NCBI GenBank assembly: GCA_949292245.1
Contig: CASEYV010000001.1
Span: 183,313-247,312, forward strand
DNA length: 64,000 bases
DNA from: an uncultured bacterium
GTDB taxonomy: Bacteria > Bacillota_I > Bacilli_A > RF39 > UBA660
Reading direction: 5' to 3'
Below the pieces are notes generated by a model. It was given only the letters and a program-made list of their open reading frames with translations, was not told where the DNA came from and searched no databases. The translations under genes and the position numbers were made by a program. Below are positions 623 through 39,524 of this stretch, piece after piece. How positions within the stretch are numbered: the first letter of the stretch is position 1; every line of letters begins with the position of its first letter.

Positions 623-1471
623 ATGTCATATAACATTAAAAAAACAAATGGAGAACCATTATTCGGAGAAACAGGATTACCAGAAAATCAAATTGATACT
701 ACAAGAACTCCTGTAGCATTAATTGGTAAATTGACACCAGATTATGGTAATTATCAATCAGAAAATTTTGTTCATATAACTGAAAATTTTGCTAATGATG
801 TTTTTCCAGAAAATCCATTAAAAGGTCAATTTGCATATAATACAACAGATGATTGTGTATATGTCTGTGTTGATGATATATTAAAAACTTGGACTAAAAT
901 GTTGTCTATTAGATTTGAGCAACAAACAAATCCTCAAACTGGTGATATGTATTATGATATTGAAGAAAAGAAATTATACATATTTGATGAAACAGTTGGT
1001 GATTATGGAGATTGGGTATTAATTGGTCCAGATAACTTTAAAAATAAAAAGACAGATTCGGTTGTTTTAACAACTGATAGGGATATAAAATCAGCATATT
1101 ATAATGTAAATTTAAATGTTGATGAAGCAAGTTTAGTAACATTAAAAATAGTTGCTAGAGAAAAAATGAATCCAGAAACAAATCCAGAATATGGTATTAG
1201 AGTTCCAGAATGTTCTTCTTGGGTATATCGCATGATGGCTAATTCTTATAAAATAGAAAATAATATAACAAAAACAGAAATTGTCGGTGACCCTAATTTT
1301 GAATTAATTGGTAGAACATCTGGTGAAGCATTAAATTGGGTTATTAATCCTGTAATATTTGAAAATATGCTTCAAATTAATGTTAGTGGTGTTGGAACAA
1401 CTAATGAATTAATGACTCCAGAAATGGATAATGTTCAATGGGAAATTGATATTGAGATTGTAAAGGTATAA
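623..1471 (+). CDS. hypothetical virion (tail/baseplate module) protein
   Basis: 282-aa ORF with an AGGAA-type RBS just upstream, in the same operon as its neighbours. No family recognised. Confidence 0.5.
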   Translation: MSYNIKKTNGEPLFGETGLPENQIDTTRTPVALIGKLTPDYGNYQSENFVHITENFANDVFPENPLKGQFAYNTTDDCVYVCVDDILKTWTKMLSIRFEQQTNPQTGDMYYDIEEKKLYIFDETVGDYGDWVLIGPDNFKNKKTDSVVLTTDRDIKSAYYNVNLNVDEASLVTLKIVAREKMNPETNPEYGIRVPECSSWVYRMMANSYKIENNITKTEIVGDPNFELIGRTSGEALNWVINPVIFENMLQINVSGVGTTNELMTPEMDNVQWEIDIEIVKV

Positions 1472-1473
1472 TA

Positions 1474-1752
1474 ATGACTTCTATTAATATTGACCATAAA
1501 AAAGGTATAATAAGCACAGAATCAGATGACATATTATATTTGTCAGATAAAGGTGCTATAAAAATAGGCGATGGAACATATTTAGATGAATTGGGAAACT
1601 CTCAAGAAATAGAAGCTCGTGAAGATTATATCGGAGCAATGAGATATAATTTTGATAGAGGTTGTTTACAAATTTGTGATGGTAAAAAATGGAAAGATGT
1701 TTTAGGTCAATATAAACAAACATCACATATTGTTTGGTCATTATTATTTTAG
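1474..1752 (+). CDS. small fibre/baseplate-like protein
   Basis: 92-aa ORF starting 3 nt after the previous stop. The motif GAMRYNFDRGCLQICDGKKWKDV resembles the G-x-(I/M)RYN...G..W motif common in phage fibre and baseplate proteins. Confidence 0.4.
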   Translation: MTSINIDHKKGIISTESDDILYLSDKGAIKIGDGTYLDELGNSQEIEAREDYIGAMRYNFDRGCLQICDGKKWKDVLGQYKQTSHIVWSLLF

Positions 1753-1778
1753 GCTCTATTAAACAATTTTGTTGAAAT
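1746..1778. repeat. left arm of a 33-bp inverted repeat (32/33 match; 25-bp perfect core at 1754-1778)
   Basis: ttttagGctctattaaacaattttgttgaaat is the reverse complement of 2232-2264. It overlaps the stop codon of the 1474..1752 CDS. Confidence 0.9.
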
Positions 1779-1900
1779 ATGGCTTGTCCCTTTTACATAT
1801 AACATTTTTAGACTTTTCAATGATATTCAATATGATAAATTATCAACTTAAATAATGAAAAGTTAAAGAAAAAATTATTTGATTCACAAATAACAAAAAT

Positions 1901-1934
1901 CTCCTTATAAATACTTGTACGAATTTATAAGGAG
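1901..1934. terminator. 12-bp stem hairpin (ctccttataaat / atttataaggag). It is a terminator for the minus-strand mini-ORF, and on the plus strand it sequesters the AAGGAG SD of the 1944 mini-ORF.
   Basis: Perfect 12-bp stem with a 10-nt loop. On the minus strand it is followed by a T-rich tract (atttttgttatttg). Confidence 0.6.
1906..1913 (+). promoter_or_regulatory. T4-type late promoter motif TATAAATA
   Basis: Exact TATAAATA 30 nt upstream of the ATG at 1944, lying inside the left hairpin arm. Confidence 0.45.
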
Positions 1935-1943
1935 ATTTGTGAA

Positions 1944-2045
1944 ATGATGAAAAGAATTTATGCAAAACTACAAAAATGCTATTATCAACGAAAACTTTTT
2001 AAAGATGTAATCATACTATATAAATTACATAGAAAAACTTTCTAA
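1944..2045 (+). CDS. 33-aa highly basic mini-protein (MMKRIYAKLQKCYYQRKLFKDVIILYKLHRKTF)
   Basis: Hand-translated; it is below the ORF-track size cutoff. A strong AAGGAG SD sits 9 nt upstream and TATAAATA 30 nt upstream. Confidence 0.35.
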   Translation: MMKRIYAKLQKCYYQRKLFKDVIILYKLHRKTF

Positions 2046-2144
2046 ATTATCAATATTATCTAAAAAAGTTTGTTTTTCTTCTTGGGATATTTTTAACGGT
2101 TCATATTTTGTAATTGTATATTGAGAAAAAGTAATTTTATCCAT
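2025..2144 (-). CDS. 39-aa acidic mini-protein (MDKITFSQYTITKYEPLKISQEEKQTFLDNIDNLESFSM)
   Basis: Hand-translated. It has an AAAGGA RBS and a TTGCTA-18-TATAAT promoter upstream. It converges on and overlaps the 1944..2045 ORF by 21 nt. Confidence 0.35.
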   Translation of the reverse strand: MDKITFSQYTITKYEPLKISQEEKQTFLDNIDNLESFSM

Positions 2145-2181
2145 TTCTAAAATCCTTTCATAAATTATTAAACAGAATTAC

Positions 2182-2211
2182 ATTATAGATTCTTATAAAA
2201 TAATCTAGCAA
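2182..2211 (-). promoter_or_regulatory. host sigma70-like promoter TTGCTA-18 nt-TATAAT
   Basis: The -35 element is at 2211-2206 and the -10 at 2187-2182 on the minus strand, about 38 nt upstream of the ATG at 2144. Confidence 0.5.
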
Positions 2212-2231
2212 GGATTTTATTTAGAGATTAT

Positions 2232-2264
2232 ATTTCAACAAAATTGTTTAATAGAGTCTAAAAT
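2232..2264. repeat. right arm of the 33-bp inverted repeat
   Basis: Reverse complement of 1746-1778. It sits immediately upstream of the promoter of the gp55-like gene. Confidence 0.9.
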
Positions 2265-2290
2265 TAAATAATTTTTTTATTAAATTTTTG

Positions 2291-2299
2291 TGATATAAT
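2291..2299 (+). promoter_or_regulatory. extended -10 promoter (TGaTATAAT) for the gp55-like gene
   Basis: Exact TGnTATAAT 29 nt upstream of the ATG at 2328. Confidence 0.5.
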
Positions 2300-2327
2300 A
2301 CTTAAAAATGGAAGTAAAAGGATTATT

Positions 2328-3359
2328 ATGAAATTTAATGAAAAAAGATATTTTTTAAAAAATTCTAATTTATTAGCCGAAGTTCATAATTCAAAATTAA
2401 CATATTGCTGTTATGAAAAACCAGAATATGGAAATTATGATATTATATGTAAAGATTATTTACTAATAACTCCAAATATAATATTAAATTTTTTTCGCAA
2501 AAATCCAAATAGAGATTATATAATTGTTAGGGTTATGACTGATGAGCATGTTTTACCTTATTGTAAAAATGGAAAAGTAAATTTGCAAGAATTAAAAATG
2601 AAACCATTTAAACATTTTTTAATTTATAAATCTGATTTTGAACGAATATATTCTGAAACGGAAGCTAATTTAGATAAAATTGAACAATTAAATACTAAGA
2701 TTTTAAATATTAAAGAACAGAAAAAAGATAATAATAGAAATATTAGATTAAATCGTTTAGAAAAAGATAAACAGATACCTTTTAAAGAAGATAATAAAAA
2801 ATGTGATGAAGAAATATATAATATAACAAATGAAATAAAAAGATTGTCTGAAACTTTTTCTATTAATATTATGAAAAATGCCAAAGAAGTATTGCGTTCT
2901 CATTGGAATGGAAAAACTATTGAAAGTGGTCATTTTGATGTTTCACAAGGAAAATTAAGCGATGGTTTAGTTTATATGATAATTATGTTGGTTGACCAAT
3001 TTGCTAAATCTGGTAATTGGTCTGGATATACATATTTAGATGATATGAAAGGAGCAGCATTGGTTCATTTATGCGACGTTGCTTTGAAATTTGAAGAATC
3101 TGAATCAACTAATGTATTTTCATATTTAACTCAAATAGCTTCAAATAAATTTACGGCTACTTTAAATAGTGAAAAATATCAAAGAAGAATAAAATCAAAA
3201 ATGATGCAAGCAGTTGGTTATAATCCAACATTTGGTGAAATTGTTGATGAAGAATTTAAAAATATATATTATGATGATGAAGGTAATGAGATAGTTGATG
3301 ATGATTCTGATGATTTAGAAGAATCATCTGATAATGAAACAACCGATGAAAATTATTGA
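2328..3359 (+). CDS. late-transcription sigma factor, T4 gp55 family, with a large internal insertion and an acidic C-terminal tail
   Basis: The C-terminal half LSDGLVYMIIMLVDQFAKSGNWSGYTYLDDMKG...FEESESTNVFSYLTQIASNKF...EKYQRRIK aligns with T4 gp55 [29 protein letters not shown]...[21 protein letters not shown]...ERKEVAKK. The N-terminal KNSNLLAEVHNSK matches gp55 NNKELLQAIIDWK. Confidence 0.75.
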   Translation: MKFNEKRYFLKNSNLLAEVHNSKLTYCCYEKPEYGNYDIICKDYLLITPNIILNFFRKNPNRDYIIVRVMTDEHVLPYCKNGKVNLQELKMKPFKHFLIYKSDFERIYSETEANLDKIEQLNTKILNIKEQKKDNNRNIRLNRLEKDKQIPFKEDNKKCDEEIYNITNEIKRLSETFSINIMKNAKEVLRSHWNGKTIESGHFDVSQGKLSDGLVYMIIMLVDQFAKSGNWSGYTYLDDMKGAALVHLCDVALKFEESESTNVFSYLTQIASNKFTATLNSEKYQRRIKSKMMQAVGYNPTFGEIVDEEFKNIYYDDEGNEIVDDDSDDLEESSDNETTDENY

Positions 3360-3841
3360 GGTTCAATAATTTCTATACCATCATCTTCGTCATAATCATT
3401 TGAAGCATTTTCAACATTTTTTGTAGATGCTTCAAATTTTTTTACTTGTAATTCATGATTTAATTTTTTAAATTTGGCATCTATTTTTGCTAATCTTGCG
3501 TTTAATTTTATATTGAGAAAATTTTGGGCTGATGAAGAAATATCTCCAACCGATTTACCTGTTGTATTTAAAGCTATATCCATTAAATCTGTAAATGCTT
3601 GGTCAGCTTGATTCGCAATTTCATCTAATTCAAAAGAATCTTTATCTAATAATTCCGATTTAGTTAGATTTTTTAATTCCTCATTTTTTTGAACAATAAA
3701 TTTTTTTTGTTCGATTGGTTCTAATTCTGTAATGATATTTTCTTTGTTGATTAATTCTAAAGCATTTTGAATATCAGAACATTCTTCTATTTCTTCATTA
3801 CTTAAAATATTAAATTCTTTATCTAATTTTTTATTTGCCAT
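3353..3841 (-). CDS. hypothetical acidic coiled-coil protein
   Basis: 162-aa ORF with a late motif 38 nt upstream on its strand. It converges on the gp55-like gene with a 7-nt overlap. Confidence 0.5.
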   Translation of the reverse strand: MANKKLDKEFNILSNEEIEECSDIQNALELINKENIITELEPIEQKKFIVQKNEELKNLTKSELLDKDSFELDEIANQADQAFTDLMDIALNTTGKSVGDISSSAQNFLNIKLNARLAKIDAKFKKLNHELQVKKFEASTKNVENASNDYDEDDGIEIIEPQ

Positions 3842-3872: not shown

Positions 3873-3886
3873 TATAAATATTTATA
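3873..3886. promoter_or_regulatory. palindromic back-to-back late promoter pair TATAAATATTTATA
   Basis: TATAAATA at 3873-3880 on the plus strand is 30 nt from the ATG at 3910. TATAAATA at 3886-3879 on the minus strand is 38 nt from the ATG at 3841. Confidence 0.55.
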
Positions 3887-3909: not shown

Positions 3910-5316
3910 ATGGGAATATTAGATAGTATTACAAATAAGTTTTATAATTCAGATGTTGGGCGAGTTTTTTTAGATGATAATAGCTATGCTTCGACACCAT
4001 ATAATTCAAATTTTATACCAGAATATTTAACTACAACCGGACAAAAGAGATTTTCAACTAATTCAGCAATTCCAAATTTACCAAAATTGGAAACTATGTT
4101 TTTTGTATATTTTTCTTTGAATCCAGAAGCACAAGCTATGATTAACAAGAAAAAAGCATTAATAAATTTTTTAGTTAATGCTAATTCTTCTGATACATCA
4201 ACATCAGATGTTCAATCCCAAAATTTAGCTTCAAGAATACAAAGTGGTATGACTTCTTTAATAAATGGAGCAGCTGATTATATAAATTCTGGGTTAAATT
4301 CAATAGCTAAATCATTTACAGGTAAAGATTTGACTTCTCAAGAAAATAAAAATCAAAAAATTCCGAACACAGAAAATTCAAAAACATTTGGGGATTATAT
4401 ACCAGATAAATTTTTATTGAATCAATTATCTTTTGAATTGTCTAAATTTGTAAAAACTATTGATAAACCATCTATTGATTTTGATATCAAAGAATATAAT
4501 GAATATAATCGTAAAAGATTAGTATATGAAAAAATAAATTACGGTCCTGTTAAAATTACATTTTATGATGTTAAAGAAAATCCAGTTCAACAATTTTTCT
4601 TTGCATATTTAAAAATGATTAATAATAACTTTTTATGTAAAGATTATACACATTATAATAAAAAAATTGTTACCAATAAATTTGATACTGATATTACAGA
4701 TTGGGGATTTAGTACTGATTCTAATTTTAGATTGATTGATAAAATTTCTATATGTGAATTTTATATGGATAAAATGATGGTATATACATTAGAAAACCCA
4801 GTAATTAAATCTATAAATTTTGGAACAAATAAAATGGGTTCATTTAATGCAAATGAAATTAATATAACATTTCAATATGAAGGATTTACCAACGATTTAT
4901 TGGATATTGAACCATATAATACTCAATTTGATACTGATAAAACTAAATTAAAATCAATGATAAATTCTAATATTGATGCTAATATGGCTAATTTCTTAAA
5001 TATGAGATATAAAGACGGTGCTTCAATGGGCATAGATACTGCCGTATCTTTTATTAAAGGTGTATTAGATGCTCCATCTGATGAAAGATGGGACAAAATT
5101 AAATCACAAACATTAGATACATTAAGAAAATTAGGATTTTCGGATGAAATTAATTTAACAAATTCATTATTGGAAGATATTGAAAATTATAAAAACTCTG
5201 AAGATAAAGCTAAATATTTGTTAAAATTAACTGATGACCCATCATCTATTTTGGGTCAAGTGTTAAATAACGGTAGCACTTCTTCCGCAGAAGGATTTTT
5301 AAAGATGTTTTTCTAA
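3910..5316 (+). CDS. baseplate/tail-tube-associated protein with a gp19-fold C-terminal half (T4 gp48/gp54-like)
   Basis: The C-terminal pattern KPSIDFDIKEYNEYNRKRLVYEKINYGPVKITFYDVKENPVQQFF...MMVYTLENPVIKSINFGTNKMGSFNANEINITFQYEGF has the tube-family layout also seen in the 10625..11239 protein. Confidence 0.45.
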   Translation: MGILDSITNKFYNSDVGRVFLDDNSYASTPYNSNFIPEYLTTTGQKRFSTNSAIPNLPKLETMFFVYFSLNPEAQAMINKKKALINFLVNANSSDTSTSDVQSQNLASRIQSGMTSLINGAADYINSGLNSIAKSFTGKDLTSQENKNQKIPNTENSKTFGDYIPDKFLLNQLSFELSKFVKTIDKPSIDFDIKEYNEYNRKRLVYEKINYGPVKITFYDVKENPVQQFFFAYLKMINNNFLCKDYTHYNKKIVTNKFDTDITDWGFSTDSNFRLIDKISICEFYMDKMMVYTLENPVIKSINFGTNKMGSFNANEINITFQYEGFTNDLLDIEPYNTQFDTDKTKLKSMINSNIDANMANFLNMRYKDGASMGIDTAVSFIKGVLDAPSDERWDKIKSQTLDTLRKLGFSDEINLTNSLLEDIENYKNSEDKAKYLLKLTDDPSSILGQVLNNGSTSSAEGFLKMFF

Positions 5317-11316: not shown

Positions 11317-11324
11317 TATAAATA
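11317..11324 (+). promoter_or_regulatory. late promoter TATAAATA
   Basis: Exact motif 29 nt upstream of the ATG at 11353. Confidence 0.55.
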
Positions 11325-39507: not shown

Positions 39508-39524
39508 AAAAATATTTATAAACA

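Follow-up and report, generated by a model that had tools for sequence, protein, structure and literature searches.

What is a half-kilobase segment, enclosed by long inverted repeats and carrying two convergent mini-open reading frames (mini-ORFs), doing directly upstream of the late sigma factor gene of a jumbo phage? The segment lies in a 64-kb stretch of contig CASEYV010000001.1, called the window here, and all coordinates refer to this window and not to the whole phage genome. A preliminary description, made from the sequence alone, had offered several readings of it: an early/late antisense switch, a small toxin–antitoxin (TA)-like pair, an element resembling a miniature inverted-repeat transposable element (MITE), or an invertible element. 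The analysis reported here indicates that window positions 1752-2258 are very probably a non-autonomous relic of a passenger-carrying ('tIS') insertion sequence (IS) of the IS1595 family, similar to a MITE or a mobile insertion cassette (MIC). The element is 507 bp long with a GC content of 20.9%, is assigned to the minus strand because its promoter-end module points that way, and contains no transposase gene.

Insertion site and parent element

A repeat search placed the two arms at 1746-1780 and 2230-2264. They are 35 nt long, complementary at 34 of 35 positions (97%) with the sole mismatch at 1753/2257, and 449 nt apart; the inverted repeat previously noted, as 33 bp with a 32/33 match and a 453-bp spacer, is thus real. 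The 29-mer of the arm occurs at just two sites in the 64 kb, compared to 0 expected from 100 dinucleotide-preserving shuffles, which rules out a chance inverted repeat. As had been seen before, the left arm overlaps the stop codon of the upstream gene: this ORF (1474-1752) encodes 92 aa, and its TAG stop (1750-1752) falls inside the arm. The right arm is indeed near the promoter of the sigma factor gene, an extended -10 promoter TGTGATATAAT (2289-2299, plus strand) situated beyond the element and conserved in the alignment with L001, L004, L005 and L008 (L numbers are our own locus handles). The two were said to abut, which holds only approximately, as about 30 nt separate the promoter from the end of the element. 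The downstream ORF (2328-3359) encodes a gp55-type late sigma factor (phrog_12791, E = 1.2e-43; phrog_234, E = 2.3e-18).

A blastn search of positions 1400-3400 against 50,697 deposited phages gave zero DNA-level matches. At the protein level, gp55 retrieved eight related phage contigs from IMG/VR (72-78% amino acid identity, 30-287 kb), six of which are jumbo-sized (203-287 kb), and these eight form the set of relatives used below; more remote gp55 relatives include Atu_ph07, PA5oct and similar jumbo phages. The stop codon of the 92-aa gene is located 50-70 nt before the gp55 ATG in all eight relatives, and the multiple alignment shows one clean gap of ~0.5 kb opposite window 1752-2258. Both sides of this gap are conserved, namely the C-terminus SLLF* of the 92-aa gene and the TGnTATAAT promoter of gp55. 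The site is therefore polymorphic for the presence of the segment, being empty in the eight relatives, from which the segment is wholly missing; this comparison, already proposed in the preliminary description, fits a clean insertion. The empty version of the window site is taken as ...TTATTTTA joined straight to AATTAAAT..., with the insertion point between the second and third base of the ancestral TAA stop of the 92-aa late gene. The first G of the element restores this stop as TAG, and the gp55 promoter stays intact. An assembly chimera was also considered and ruled out, because the phage sequence at both junctions is syntenic and the inserted DNA is a deletion derivative, not a bacterial fragment.

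In IMG/VR, the exact 27-mer of the arm is found in a single contig of 287 kb, from a relative of the window phage, where two inverted sites lie 2.35 kb apart. These sites belong to a 2382-bp element (L018, 286-2667; IMGVR_UViG_3300045988_152025) with 29-nt terminal inverted repeats (TIRs) GGCTCTATTAAACAATTTTGTTGAAATAT and a perfect 8-bp flanking repeat, AAATTTTT. Its 302-aa ORF matches the NCBIfam model NF033547 'IS1595 family transposase' with 194.6 bits (cutoff 75) and also passes the Pfam models DDE_Tnp_IS1595 (PF12762) and Zn_ribbon_IS1595 (PF12760), and a DUF805 membrane protein is its passenger gene. The window TIRs, likewise of 29 nt, match those of L018, L025 and L029, which bear a transposase, at 29/29 and 28/29 positions. 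On the transposase side, the T-end TIR GGCTCTATTAAACAATTTTGTTGAAATAT (1752-1780, plus strand) is the same as the termini in L018, L021/L024, L025 and L029. On the promoter side, the P-end TIR (2230-2258, minus strand) bears a single mismatch, a G-to-A change at TIR position 2 (GACTC vs GGCTC). These two end types are common to all copies: the P-end carries TTGCTA-N18-TATAAT and the Shine–Dalgarno (SD) sequence AAAGGATTT, and the T-end carries TTGAC-N17-TATAAT, the promoter of the transposase.

The same terminus was found at nine loci of metagenome-assembled genome (MAG) contigs, labelled uncultured Alphaproteobacteria, 'Acetobacter', 'Azospirillum' or 'uncultured proteobacterium', and in six metagenome contigs; some of the MAG copies are of human-gut origin, judged from the accompanying metagenome records. 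Full-length copies are 1.9-2.4 kb long and encode a Zn-ribbon/DDE transposase; of these, one was seen in a related jumbo phage and others in MAGs of gut Alphaproteobacteria. Within IMG/VR, no relatives of the transposase were found beyond the L018 contig. The IS copies have ~27% GC, compared to 38-46% in their bacterial flanks and ~25% in the phages, including the window phage (24-25%). A lone T-end TIR was also seen in a MAG contig (L027, 3010-3038), followed by GACTTGACA and lying just upstream of an ORF starting MKFVPLYDRVLVK; this ORF is GroES-like by eye, and the TIR may be what is left of an IS, now supplying a chaperone operon with a -35 element.

IS1595-family elements make 8-bp target site duplications (TSDs) (PMC10045372), and some members, the 'tIS' forms such as tISCpe8 and MTnSag1, carry passenger genes and have TIRs of ~25 bp (PMC5704250). 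Among paired copies with both ends present, from phage and bacteria (n = 8 independent, the window copy not counted), a perfect 8-bp AT-rich TSD was found in eight of eight: AAATTTTT in L018, TTTGTTTT in L025, TTTGTAAA in L028, AAAAAAAT in L029, AATAATTA in L021/L024, TTTATATA in L038, TAAAACTT in L039/L040 and AATAAAAA in L041. The 35-nt flank pattern of L018 is present with a single AAATTTTT in two sister contigs (L035, 1578-1612; L036, 1707-1741), and this exact empty site indicates that the IS moved recently in a phage genome. The full-length IS in L018 breaks a gene for a D12-class N6-adenine DNA methyltransferase (PF02086, 77 bits) that is intact (258 aa) in L035 and L036; the interrupted copy reads DPSY vs the catalytic DPPY in the intact one.

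These features bear on the proposed invertible element, in which recombination between the repeats would flip the segment so that its strong σ70 promoter drives gp55. Repeats of ~30 nt around a ~450-bp segment with an outward-capable promoter do fit such an arrangement superficially. However, the repeats are transposon termini, associated in other copies with 8-bp TSDs and a cognate DDE transposase, and their polarity is fixed: the full-length copies always have the promoter block at one terminus and the transposase at the opposite one, with no flipped version among them. In addition, the two adjacent genes encode a structural protein and a sigma factor, not recombinases, and the whole segment is missing in the relatives. 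The proposal thus finds no support, and inversion is considered extremely improbable.

The closest copy to the window element is L039 (2105 bp), whose neighbours in its bacterial chromosome are flgE- and thrS-like genes. Over element positions 3-190 the two are 95.2% identical and over 326-629 95.7%, and the match extends to the T-end; identity to L021 is 90% across the hairpin and spacer. The blocks shared with L018 are the TIR, promoter and SD (92.5%), the hairpin and ORF2 start (84%) and the transposase-side TIR (94.7%). Compared to L039, the window element shows two deletions. One, of 156 nt, is in frame at a TAT microhomology (junction at ~2087-2089) and shortens ORF1 from 91 to 39 aa. 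The other, of ~1.43 kb, runs from codon 7 of the passenger gene, a bPH_2 gene (PF03703) in L039, through the transposase to its promoter. At the junction of this second deletion (1781-1805, minus strand), GGCTTG, left over from the -35 region of the transposase promoter, adjoins the initial 20 nt of bPH_2 (reverse complement ATGTTATATGTAAAAGGGAC), which are retained at 1786-1805 according to the alignment with L021 and L039.

The window element has thus kept the IS termini and lost the transposase gene through internal deletion of an autonomous element. It codes only for the 39-aa and 33-aa ORFs, and no transposase is detectable in the 64-kb window (tblastn of the L018 transposase, best E = 2.3). 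An independent transposase-less derivative of 607 bp is present in a bacterial MAG (L028, 5198-5804), with the perfect TSD TTTGTAAA and a different deletion junction; its mini-ORF pair (74 aa and 54 aa) differs from the window pair and is 99% identical to the full-length L021 cassette. Since this short copy is independent and its TSD is intact, short derivatives arise repeatedly and can transpose. Of the readings offered at the outset, the MITE-like element is therefore the one borne out, in the form of a transposase-less internal-deletion derivative of an IS1595-family IS that is absent from all relatives. It retains a conserved ORF2 and a truncated ORF1, and because ORFs are still carried it fits the definition of a MIC and is closer to it than to a strict, classical non-coding MITE.

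From these comparisons, the parent would have been an element of ~2.1 kb residing in gut Alphaproteobacteria and consisting of the P-end TIR, a σ70 promoter and SD, ORF1, an antisense ORF2, a terminator hairpin, the bPH_2 passenger, the transposase and the T-end TIR. A copy would have entered the phage lineage, with both deletions arising at some stage, before or after entry, and the surviving piece would be a self-contained expression module of the IS.

Several points weigh against this account. The window copy has no 8-bp TSD, unlike the eight of eight other copies: at the expected place the left-flank 8-mer is TTATTTTA (1744-1751), and the right-flank 8-mer, TAAAATTA (2259-2266), is no direct repeat of it, so the insertion event is not documented by the usual scar. 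The element is a single copy in the 64 kb, with no sign of amplification in this genome; a transposase could be encoded elsewhere in the phage genome, beyond the window; and the promoter, terminator and translation of the module are predicted from sequence. As to the missing TSD, the flanks show 6 nt of inverted complementarity, which lengthens the apparent repeat from 29 to 35 nt. A simple point mutation is unconvincing as the cause, since three changes in 8 nt would be needed. A quasi-palindrome template switch that turns the first 6 nt of the right-hand TTATTTTA into TAAAAT would yield exactly TAAAATTA, and we infer that such an event may have occurred. A TA-dinucleotide duplication of the IS630/mariner style (junction ...TTTTA/GG...TC/TAAAA..., slashes marking the element ends) was dropped, because the parent is of IS1595 type with 8-bp TSDs. 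As it lacks both a transposase and a target duplication and has a mutation in one terminus, the element is probably a fixed, near-neutral passenger, and would at best be mobilisable in trans.

The promoter–hairpin module and its mini-ORFs

What, then, does the surviving piece carry? The minus-strand promoter, ribosome-binding site and 39-aa acidic ORF of the preliminary description are all present. The σ70 promoter, P1, is formed by TTGCTA (2211-2206) and TATAAT (2187-2182) with N18 between them, and is followed by a leader and the SD AAAGGATTT (2158-2150), the whole spanning 2150-2211 on the minus strand; the block of TIR, promoter and SD is 85-94% identical in all copies. Mini-ORF1 (2025-2144, minus strand; 39 aa, pI 4.4) is the remnant, after the in-frame deletion of 52 codons, of a 91-aa protein, and all 39 kept residues are identical to P0004, the protein of L039. 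The family of this parent protein comprises four clusters (74-100% identity), and all members occupy the same position inside an IS1595-type element. AlphaFold gave a confident α/β model of the 91-aa parent (pLDDT 82), for which a Foldseek search found no significant PDB neighbour (best E = 0.027, TM 0.24). Since the deletion takes out residues ~20-71, the folded core of the model, the 39-aa product is probably non-functional as a protein.

The predicted terminator of the P1/ORF1 transcript is a hairpin at 1897-1938 (minus strand), with a perfect 16-bp stem (1897-1912/1923-1938) followed by UUUUUGUUAUUUGUG on the minus strand. An 81-nt fragment containing it folds with -22.8 kcal/mol (z = -7.6), and the U-rich tail is present on the minus strand only. 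Eleven copies keep the hairpin, and one of its pairs shows compensatory changes (UA:4, AU:4, UG:2). Seen from the plus strand, its 5' arm contains the motif TATAAATA and its 3' arm contains the SD of ORF2. Mini-ORF2, MMKRIYAKLQKCYYQRKLFKDVIILYKLHRKTF (1944-2045, plus strand; 33 aa, pI 10.2), has its SD, AGGAGA, in that 3' arm. The earlier account of this part of the element holds in most respects, including the basic 33-aa ORF with its SD and TATAAATA 30 nt before the ATG, the 21-nt overlap of the convergent mini-ORFs, and a terminator hairpin overlapping the ORF2 SD; only the size of the stem, given as 12 bp, needs correction.

ORF2 has the same 33-aa length and stop in L037, L038 and L039, with most residues kept and a single amino acid differing from L039; in L031 the frame is open and the ATG is lost. 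The ratio of synonymous to non-synonymous changes in ORF2, ~5:10, corresponds to mild or weak constraint. Searches of the window mini-ORFs against Pfam, NCBIfam, PHROGs and PADLOC returned only sub-threshold noise, as did searches of the mini-ORFs of other alleles against subsets of those libraries (without PHROGs), and an Rfam scan of 1600-2450 returned only sub-threshold miRNA-hairpin look-alikes. By comparison of the copies, the promoter, SD, hairpin, TATAAATA and both mini-ORFs are inherited from the IS.

Judging from consensus and conservation, host RNA polymerase would fire P1 leftwards, making the 39-aa peptide, and the transcript would run antisense over ORF2 and stop at the hairpin. 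Because the SD of ORF2 is the 3' arm of the stem, ORF2 would be translatable only from transcripts starting inside the hairpin. In bacteria such transcripts would start at a weak σ70 promoter in the 5' arm, and in the window phage they would plausibly be made by gp55-RNA polymerase at TATAAATA.

Different parts of the IS are conserved to very different degrees. Identity between copies is 85-94% in the P-end block (TIR, promoter and SD), 75-94% in the hairpin block and up to 97% in the transposase (L018 vs L029), and is 47-58% in most pairs for the segment from the SD to the hairpin. As 47-58% is the background for this base composition, the segment has been replaced and not merely diverged, and copies whose transposases are 97% identical have entirely different mini-ORFs. 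A single geometry is nevertheless common to five of the six distinct alleles: ORF1 starts at the SD, the opposite-strand ORF starts 3-6 nt after the hairpin AGGAGATTT, and the pair overlaps by 20-54 nt at the 3' ends. ORF1 is acidic in those five alleles (pI 4.4-5.3), and ORF2 is basic in only four of the six cassettes. The same promoter/ORF1/ORF2/hairpin module was also observed in a third, distantly related phage-like contig (L037, 2955-4980; 25% GC, with gp25-like, UvsW-like and TnsA-like genes). There the surrounding IS1595-type element ends in other termini (GGCTCAATTATGATTAGTGTATG) and its 300-aa transposase is divergent, from which it follows that the module passes from one IS backbone to another. 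Scans of IMG/VR with the promoter block and hairpin tail found no phage copies beyond one contig, and there too the copy is inside an IS.

It is conceivable, if on the whole unlikely, that this IS lineage carries a previously undescribed 'expression slot', in which the conserved σ70 promoter/SD and the hairpin bracket a segment of ~210-360 nt that is swapped wholesale, and that the window relic could express ORF2 late and boost gp55. The swapped segment would mostly hold a pair of convergent, 3'-overlapping mini-proteins and would be exchanged even between IS backbones with different termini. The hairpin would have three roles, as the terminator of gene 1, as the carrier of the gene-2 -10 element in its 5' arm and as the carrier of the gene-2 SD in its 3' arm. 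If true, the swappable mini-gene slot with its hairpin-embedded promoter and SD would be a compact regulatory design, and through the slot IS elements would have a novel means of carrying small genes that diversify. To our knowledge, no such slot has been described for IS1595 elements, although the literature was not searched exhaustively.

The convergent mini-ORFs could instead be a TA-like or addiction module that stabilises the IS, with ORF2 as a basic toxin and ORF1 or the P1 antisense RNA as the antidote, which would explain the persistence of the remnant. TA pairs are described as integral to some transposons, such as those of the Tn3 family (PMC7157771). The recurrence of the same geometry in five of six unrelated cassette alleles with an acidic ORF1, and the conservation of ORF2 length and sequence among the window-type alleles, are in keeping with such a module. 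However, there is no match at family threshold in Pfam, NCBIfam or the defence library PADLOC, the Foldseek result for the ORF1 parent model is not significant, and ORF2 lacks the hydrophobic stretch typical of type I toxins and is not basic in every cassette. Either loss is tolerated, as L031 has lost the ORF2 start and kept ORF1, and the window copy has lost the ORF1 core and kept ORF2; the constraint on ORF2 is also weak. No positive evidence was thus obtained for the TA-like pair of the preliminary description, which appears very unlikely, and the mini-ORFs are better regarded as part of the relic of an IS1595-family element.

The candidate late-promoter motif and gp55

The remaining question is whether the phage has made use of this relic. 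The candidate gp55-dependent late promoter of ORF2, TATAAATA (1906-1913, plus strand), overlaps a candidate σ70 promoter (1883-1911, plus strand), TTCACA (1883-1888)-N17-TATAAA (1906-1911), whose -35 region (reverse complement TGTGAATC) is kept beyond the terminator U-tract in most copies. In the window, TATAAATA is not over-represented (22 copies vs 33.8 expected), and 10 of the 22 copies fall in the 7% of the DNA that is non-coding (composition-adjusted P = 2e-4). Seven of those ten are 19-43 nt upstream of a same-strand ATG, with an SD following the motif, for example at 3873, before the tail-tube gene at 3910, and at 11317, before a 2227-aa ORF. Judged by its placement, TATAAATA behaves as the late promoter of this phage, of the T4-like gp55 type, and the intergenic sites form a probable set of gp55-dependent late promoters.

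On this basis, a co-opted IS remnant might act as a functional early/late antisense switch, in which early antisense RNA from P1 would silence ORF2, and late RNA from TATAAATA would free the SD and read into gp55, with positive feedback. The layout of hairpin and SD that had been claimed for such a device is present in the sequence, and its use would be as follows: read-through RNA from upstream would fold the hairpin and hide the ORF2 SD, whereas either of the two overlapping promoters would start the RNA inside the loop, so that the 5' arm is missing and the SD is free. No terminator-like site was found on the plus strand between ORF2 and gp55, so transcripts from the ORF2 promoter could extend into gp55. 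The late-promoter-like placement of TATAAATA in the window, typically before an SD and ATG, its position 30 nt ahead of the ORF2 ATG in the element, and the intact state of ORF2 (one amino acid different from the bacterial version), in contrast to the degraded ORF1 and transposase, are also in favour of a switch.

However, all of its components pre-exist in the bacterial IS, and no phage-specific adaptation was shown. TATAAATA itself is found in the hairpin stem of the bacterial copies L021, L022 and L028, and the motif was therefore not created in the phage. All eight relatives manage without the element, and the 95-96% identity to a bacterial copy points to a recent acquisition with little time for co-option. 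Of the original proposal, the late-promoter motif with the right geometry stands; the promoter, hairpin and SD-in-stem, being conserved IS parts that occur in bacteria too, did not by this comparison evolve as a phage early/late device. Late expression of ORF2 from the IS1595-family relic is plausible, but a co-opted functional switch is judged quite unlikely.

The genes and motifs around the element show further features. Baseplate-wedge and tail-tube genes are present in the neighbourhood. The gp55-like protein (2328-3359) is long, with 343 aa vs the 181 positions of the phrog_234 profile; late-sigma profiles match only residues ~135-320, and the protein has an N-terminal extension of ~130 aa and a very acidic C-terminal tail (DDDSDDLEESSDNETTDENY). 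TATAAATA is depleted inside coding regions. Intergenic copies upstream of same-strand genes are found at 11317, 18077, 20637, 26935, 43732 and 53049 on the plus strand, at distances of 19-43 nt, and at 39520 on the minus strand, at 6 nt. At 3873-3886, two overlapping opposite copies form the palindrome TATAAATATTTATA between the divergent genes 3353-3841 (minus strand) and 3910-5316 (plus strand, tail tube-like), which looks like a back-to-back bidirectional late promoter.

Significance and comparison with known systems

The 'cassette' upstream of the late sigma factor gene thus belongs to an ordinary class of selfish DNA and is not a switch evolved by the phage. The kind of element is known, but a lytic-type jumbo phage is an unusual setting for it; there it occupies an intergenic position before gp55 where insertion is tolerated. 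IS elements are rare in phage genomes and poorly tolerated there, 92% of phages having none (PMC3429520). The same IS family is present in at least three jumbo-type phage lineages, those of the window phage, IMG/VR contig 152025 and L037, in keeping with the idea that large genomes have more sites where an insertion is tolerated. Chromosomes of uncultured gut Alphaproteobacteria MAGs (L020-L028, L031 and L039) carry copies of this IS, with identities to the window copy reaching 95-96%. As IS exchange requires co-residence in one cell, this sharing bears directly, and without cultivation, on host range, and it makes gut Alphaproteobacteria candidate hosts of the uncultured jumbo phage. The interest of the locus lies in the rarity of IS elements in phages, this host link, the swappable mini-gene slot and the possible use of TATAAATA as a late promoter.

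Compared to type I TA systems of the par/fst kind, the element has similarly convergent, overlapping units, a strong terminator hairpin and an SD that would be sequestered unless transcription starts internally, and its geometry would permit a P1 transcript to cover all of ORF2 before the terminator. It differs in that the candidate toxin ORF2 is basic and soluble-looking, with no hydrophobic stretch of transmembrane length by inspection, and there is no sequence or structural relationship to par/fst.

The element also recalls phage morons and the cassettes of T4-type phages that Arbiol et al. reportedly described in 2010 as promoter-early/stem-loop (PeSL) cassettes, in which ORFs are flanked by these motifs. 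Like them, it is a self-transcribed small-gene unit (σ70 promoter, ORF and terminator) between phage genes and is absent from relatives. In contrast, it arrived through DDE transposition instead of recombining at repeated regulatory motifs; a single promoter block and hairpin are present in the window, and only one other IMG/VR contig has them.

With MITEs and MICs it shares TIRs that match an autonomous IS, an origin by internal deletion and a small size (507 bp), as well as a sibling with an intact TSD (L028, 607 bp). Classical MITEs are non-coding and multi-copy, whereas the window element, which is single-copy in the 64 kb and without a TSD, keeps two ORFs, a promoter and a terminator in the manner of a MIC.

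The closest likeness is with the tIS forms of the IS1595 family, such as tISCpe8 and MTnSag1. Passenger-carrying IS1595 groups of the ISPna2/ISNwi1 type are said to have been described by Siguier et al. in 2009. The parents of the window element likewise have a Zn-ribbon and DDE_Tnp_IS1595 transposase, TIRs of ~29 nt starting with GG and AT-rich 8-bp TSDs, and they carry passengers such as DUF805, bPH_2 and small ORFs. The window copy departs from these forms in having neither transposase nor TSD, and the family to which it belongs departs from them in what appears to be a conserved promoter-to-terminator 'slot' with swapped mini-ORFs.

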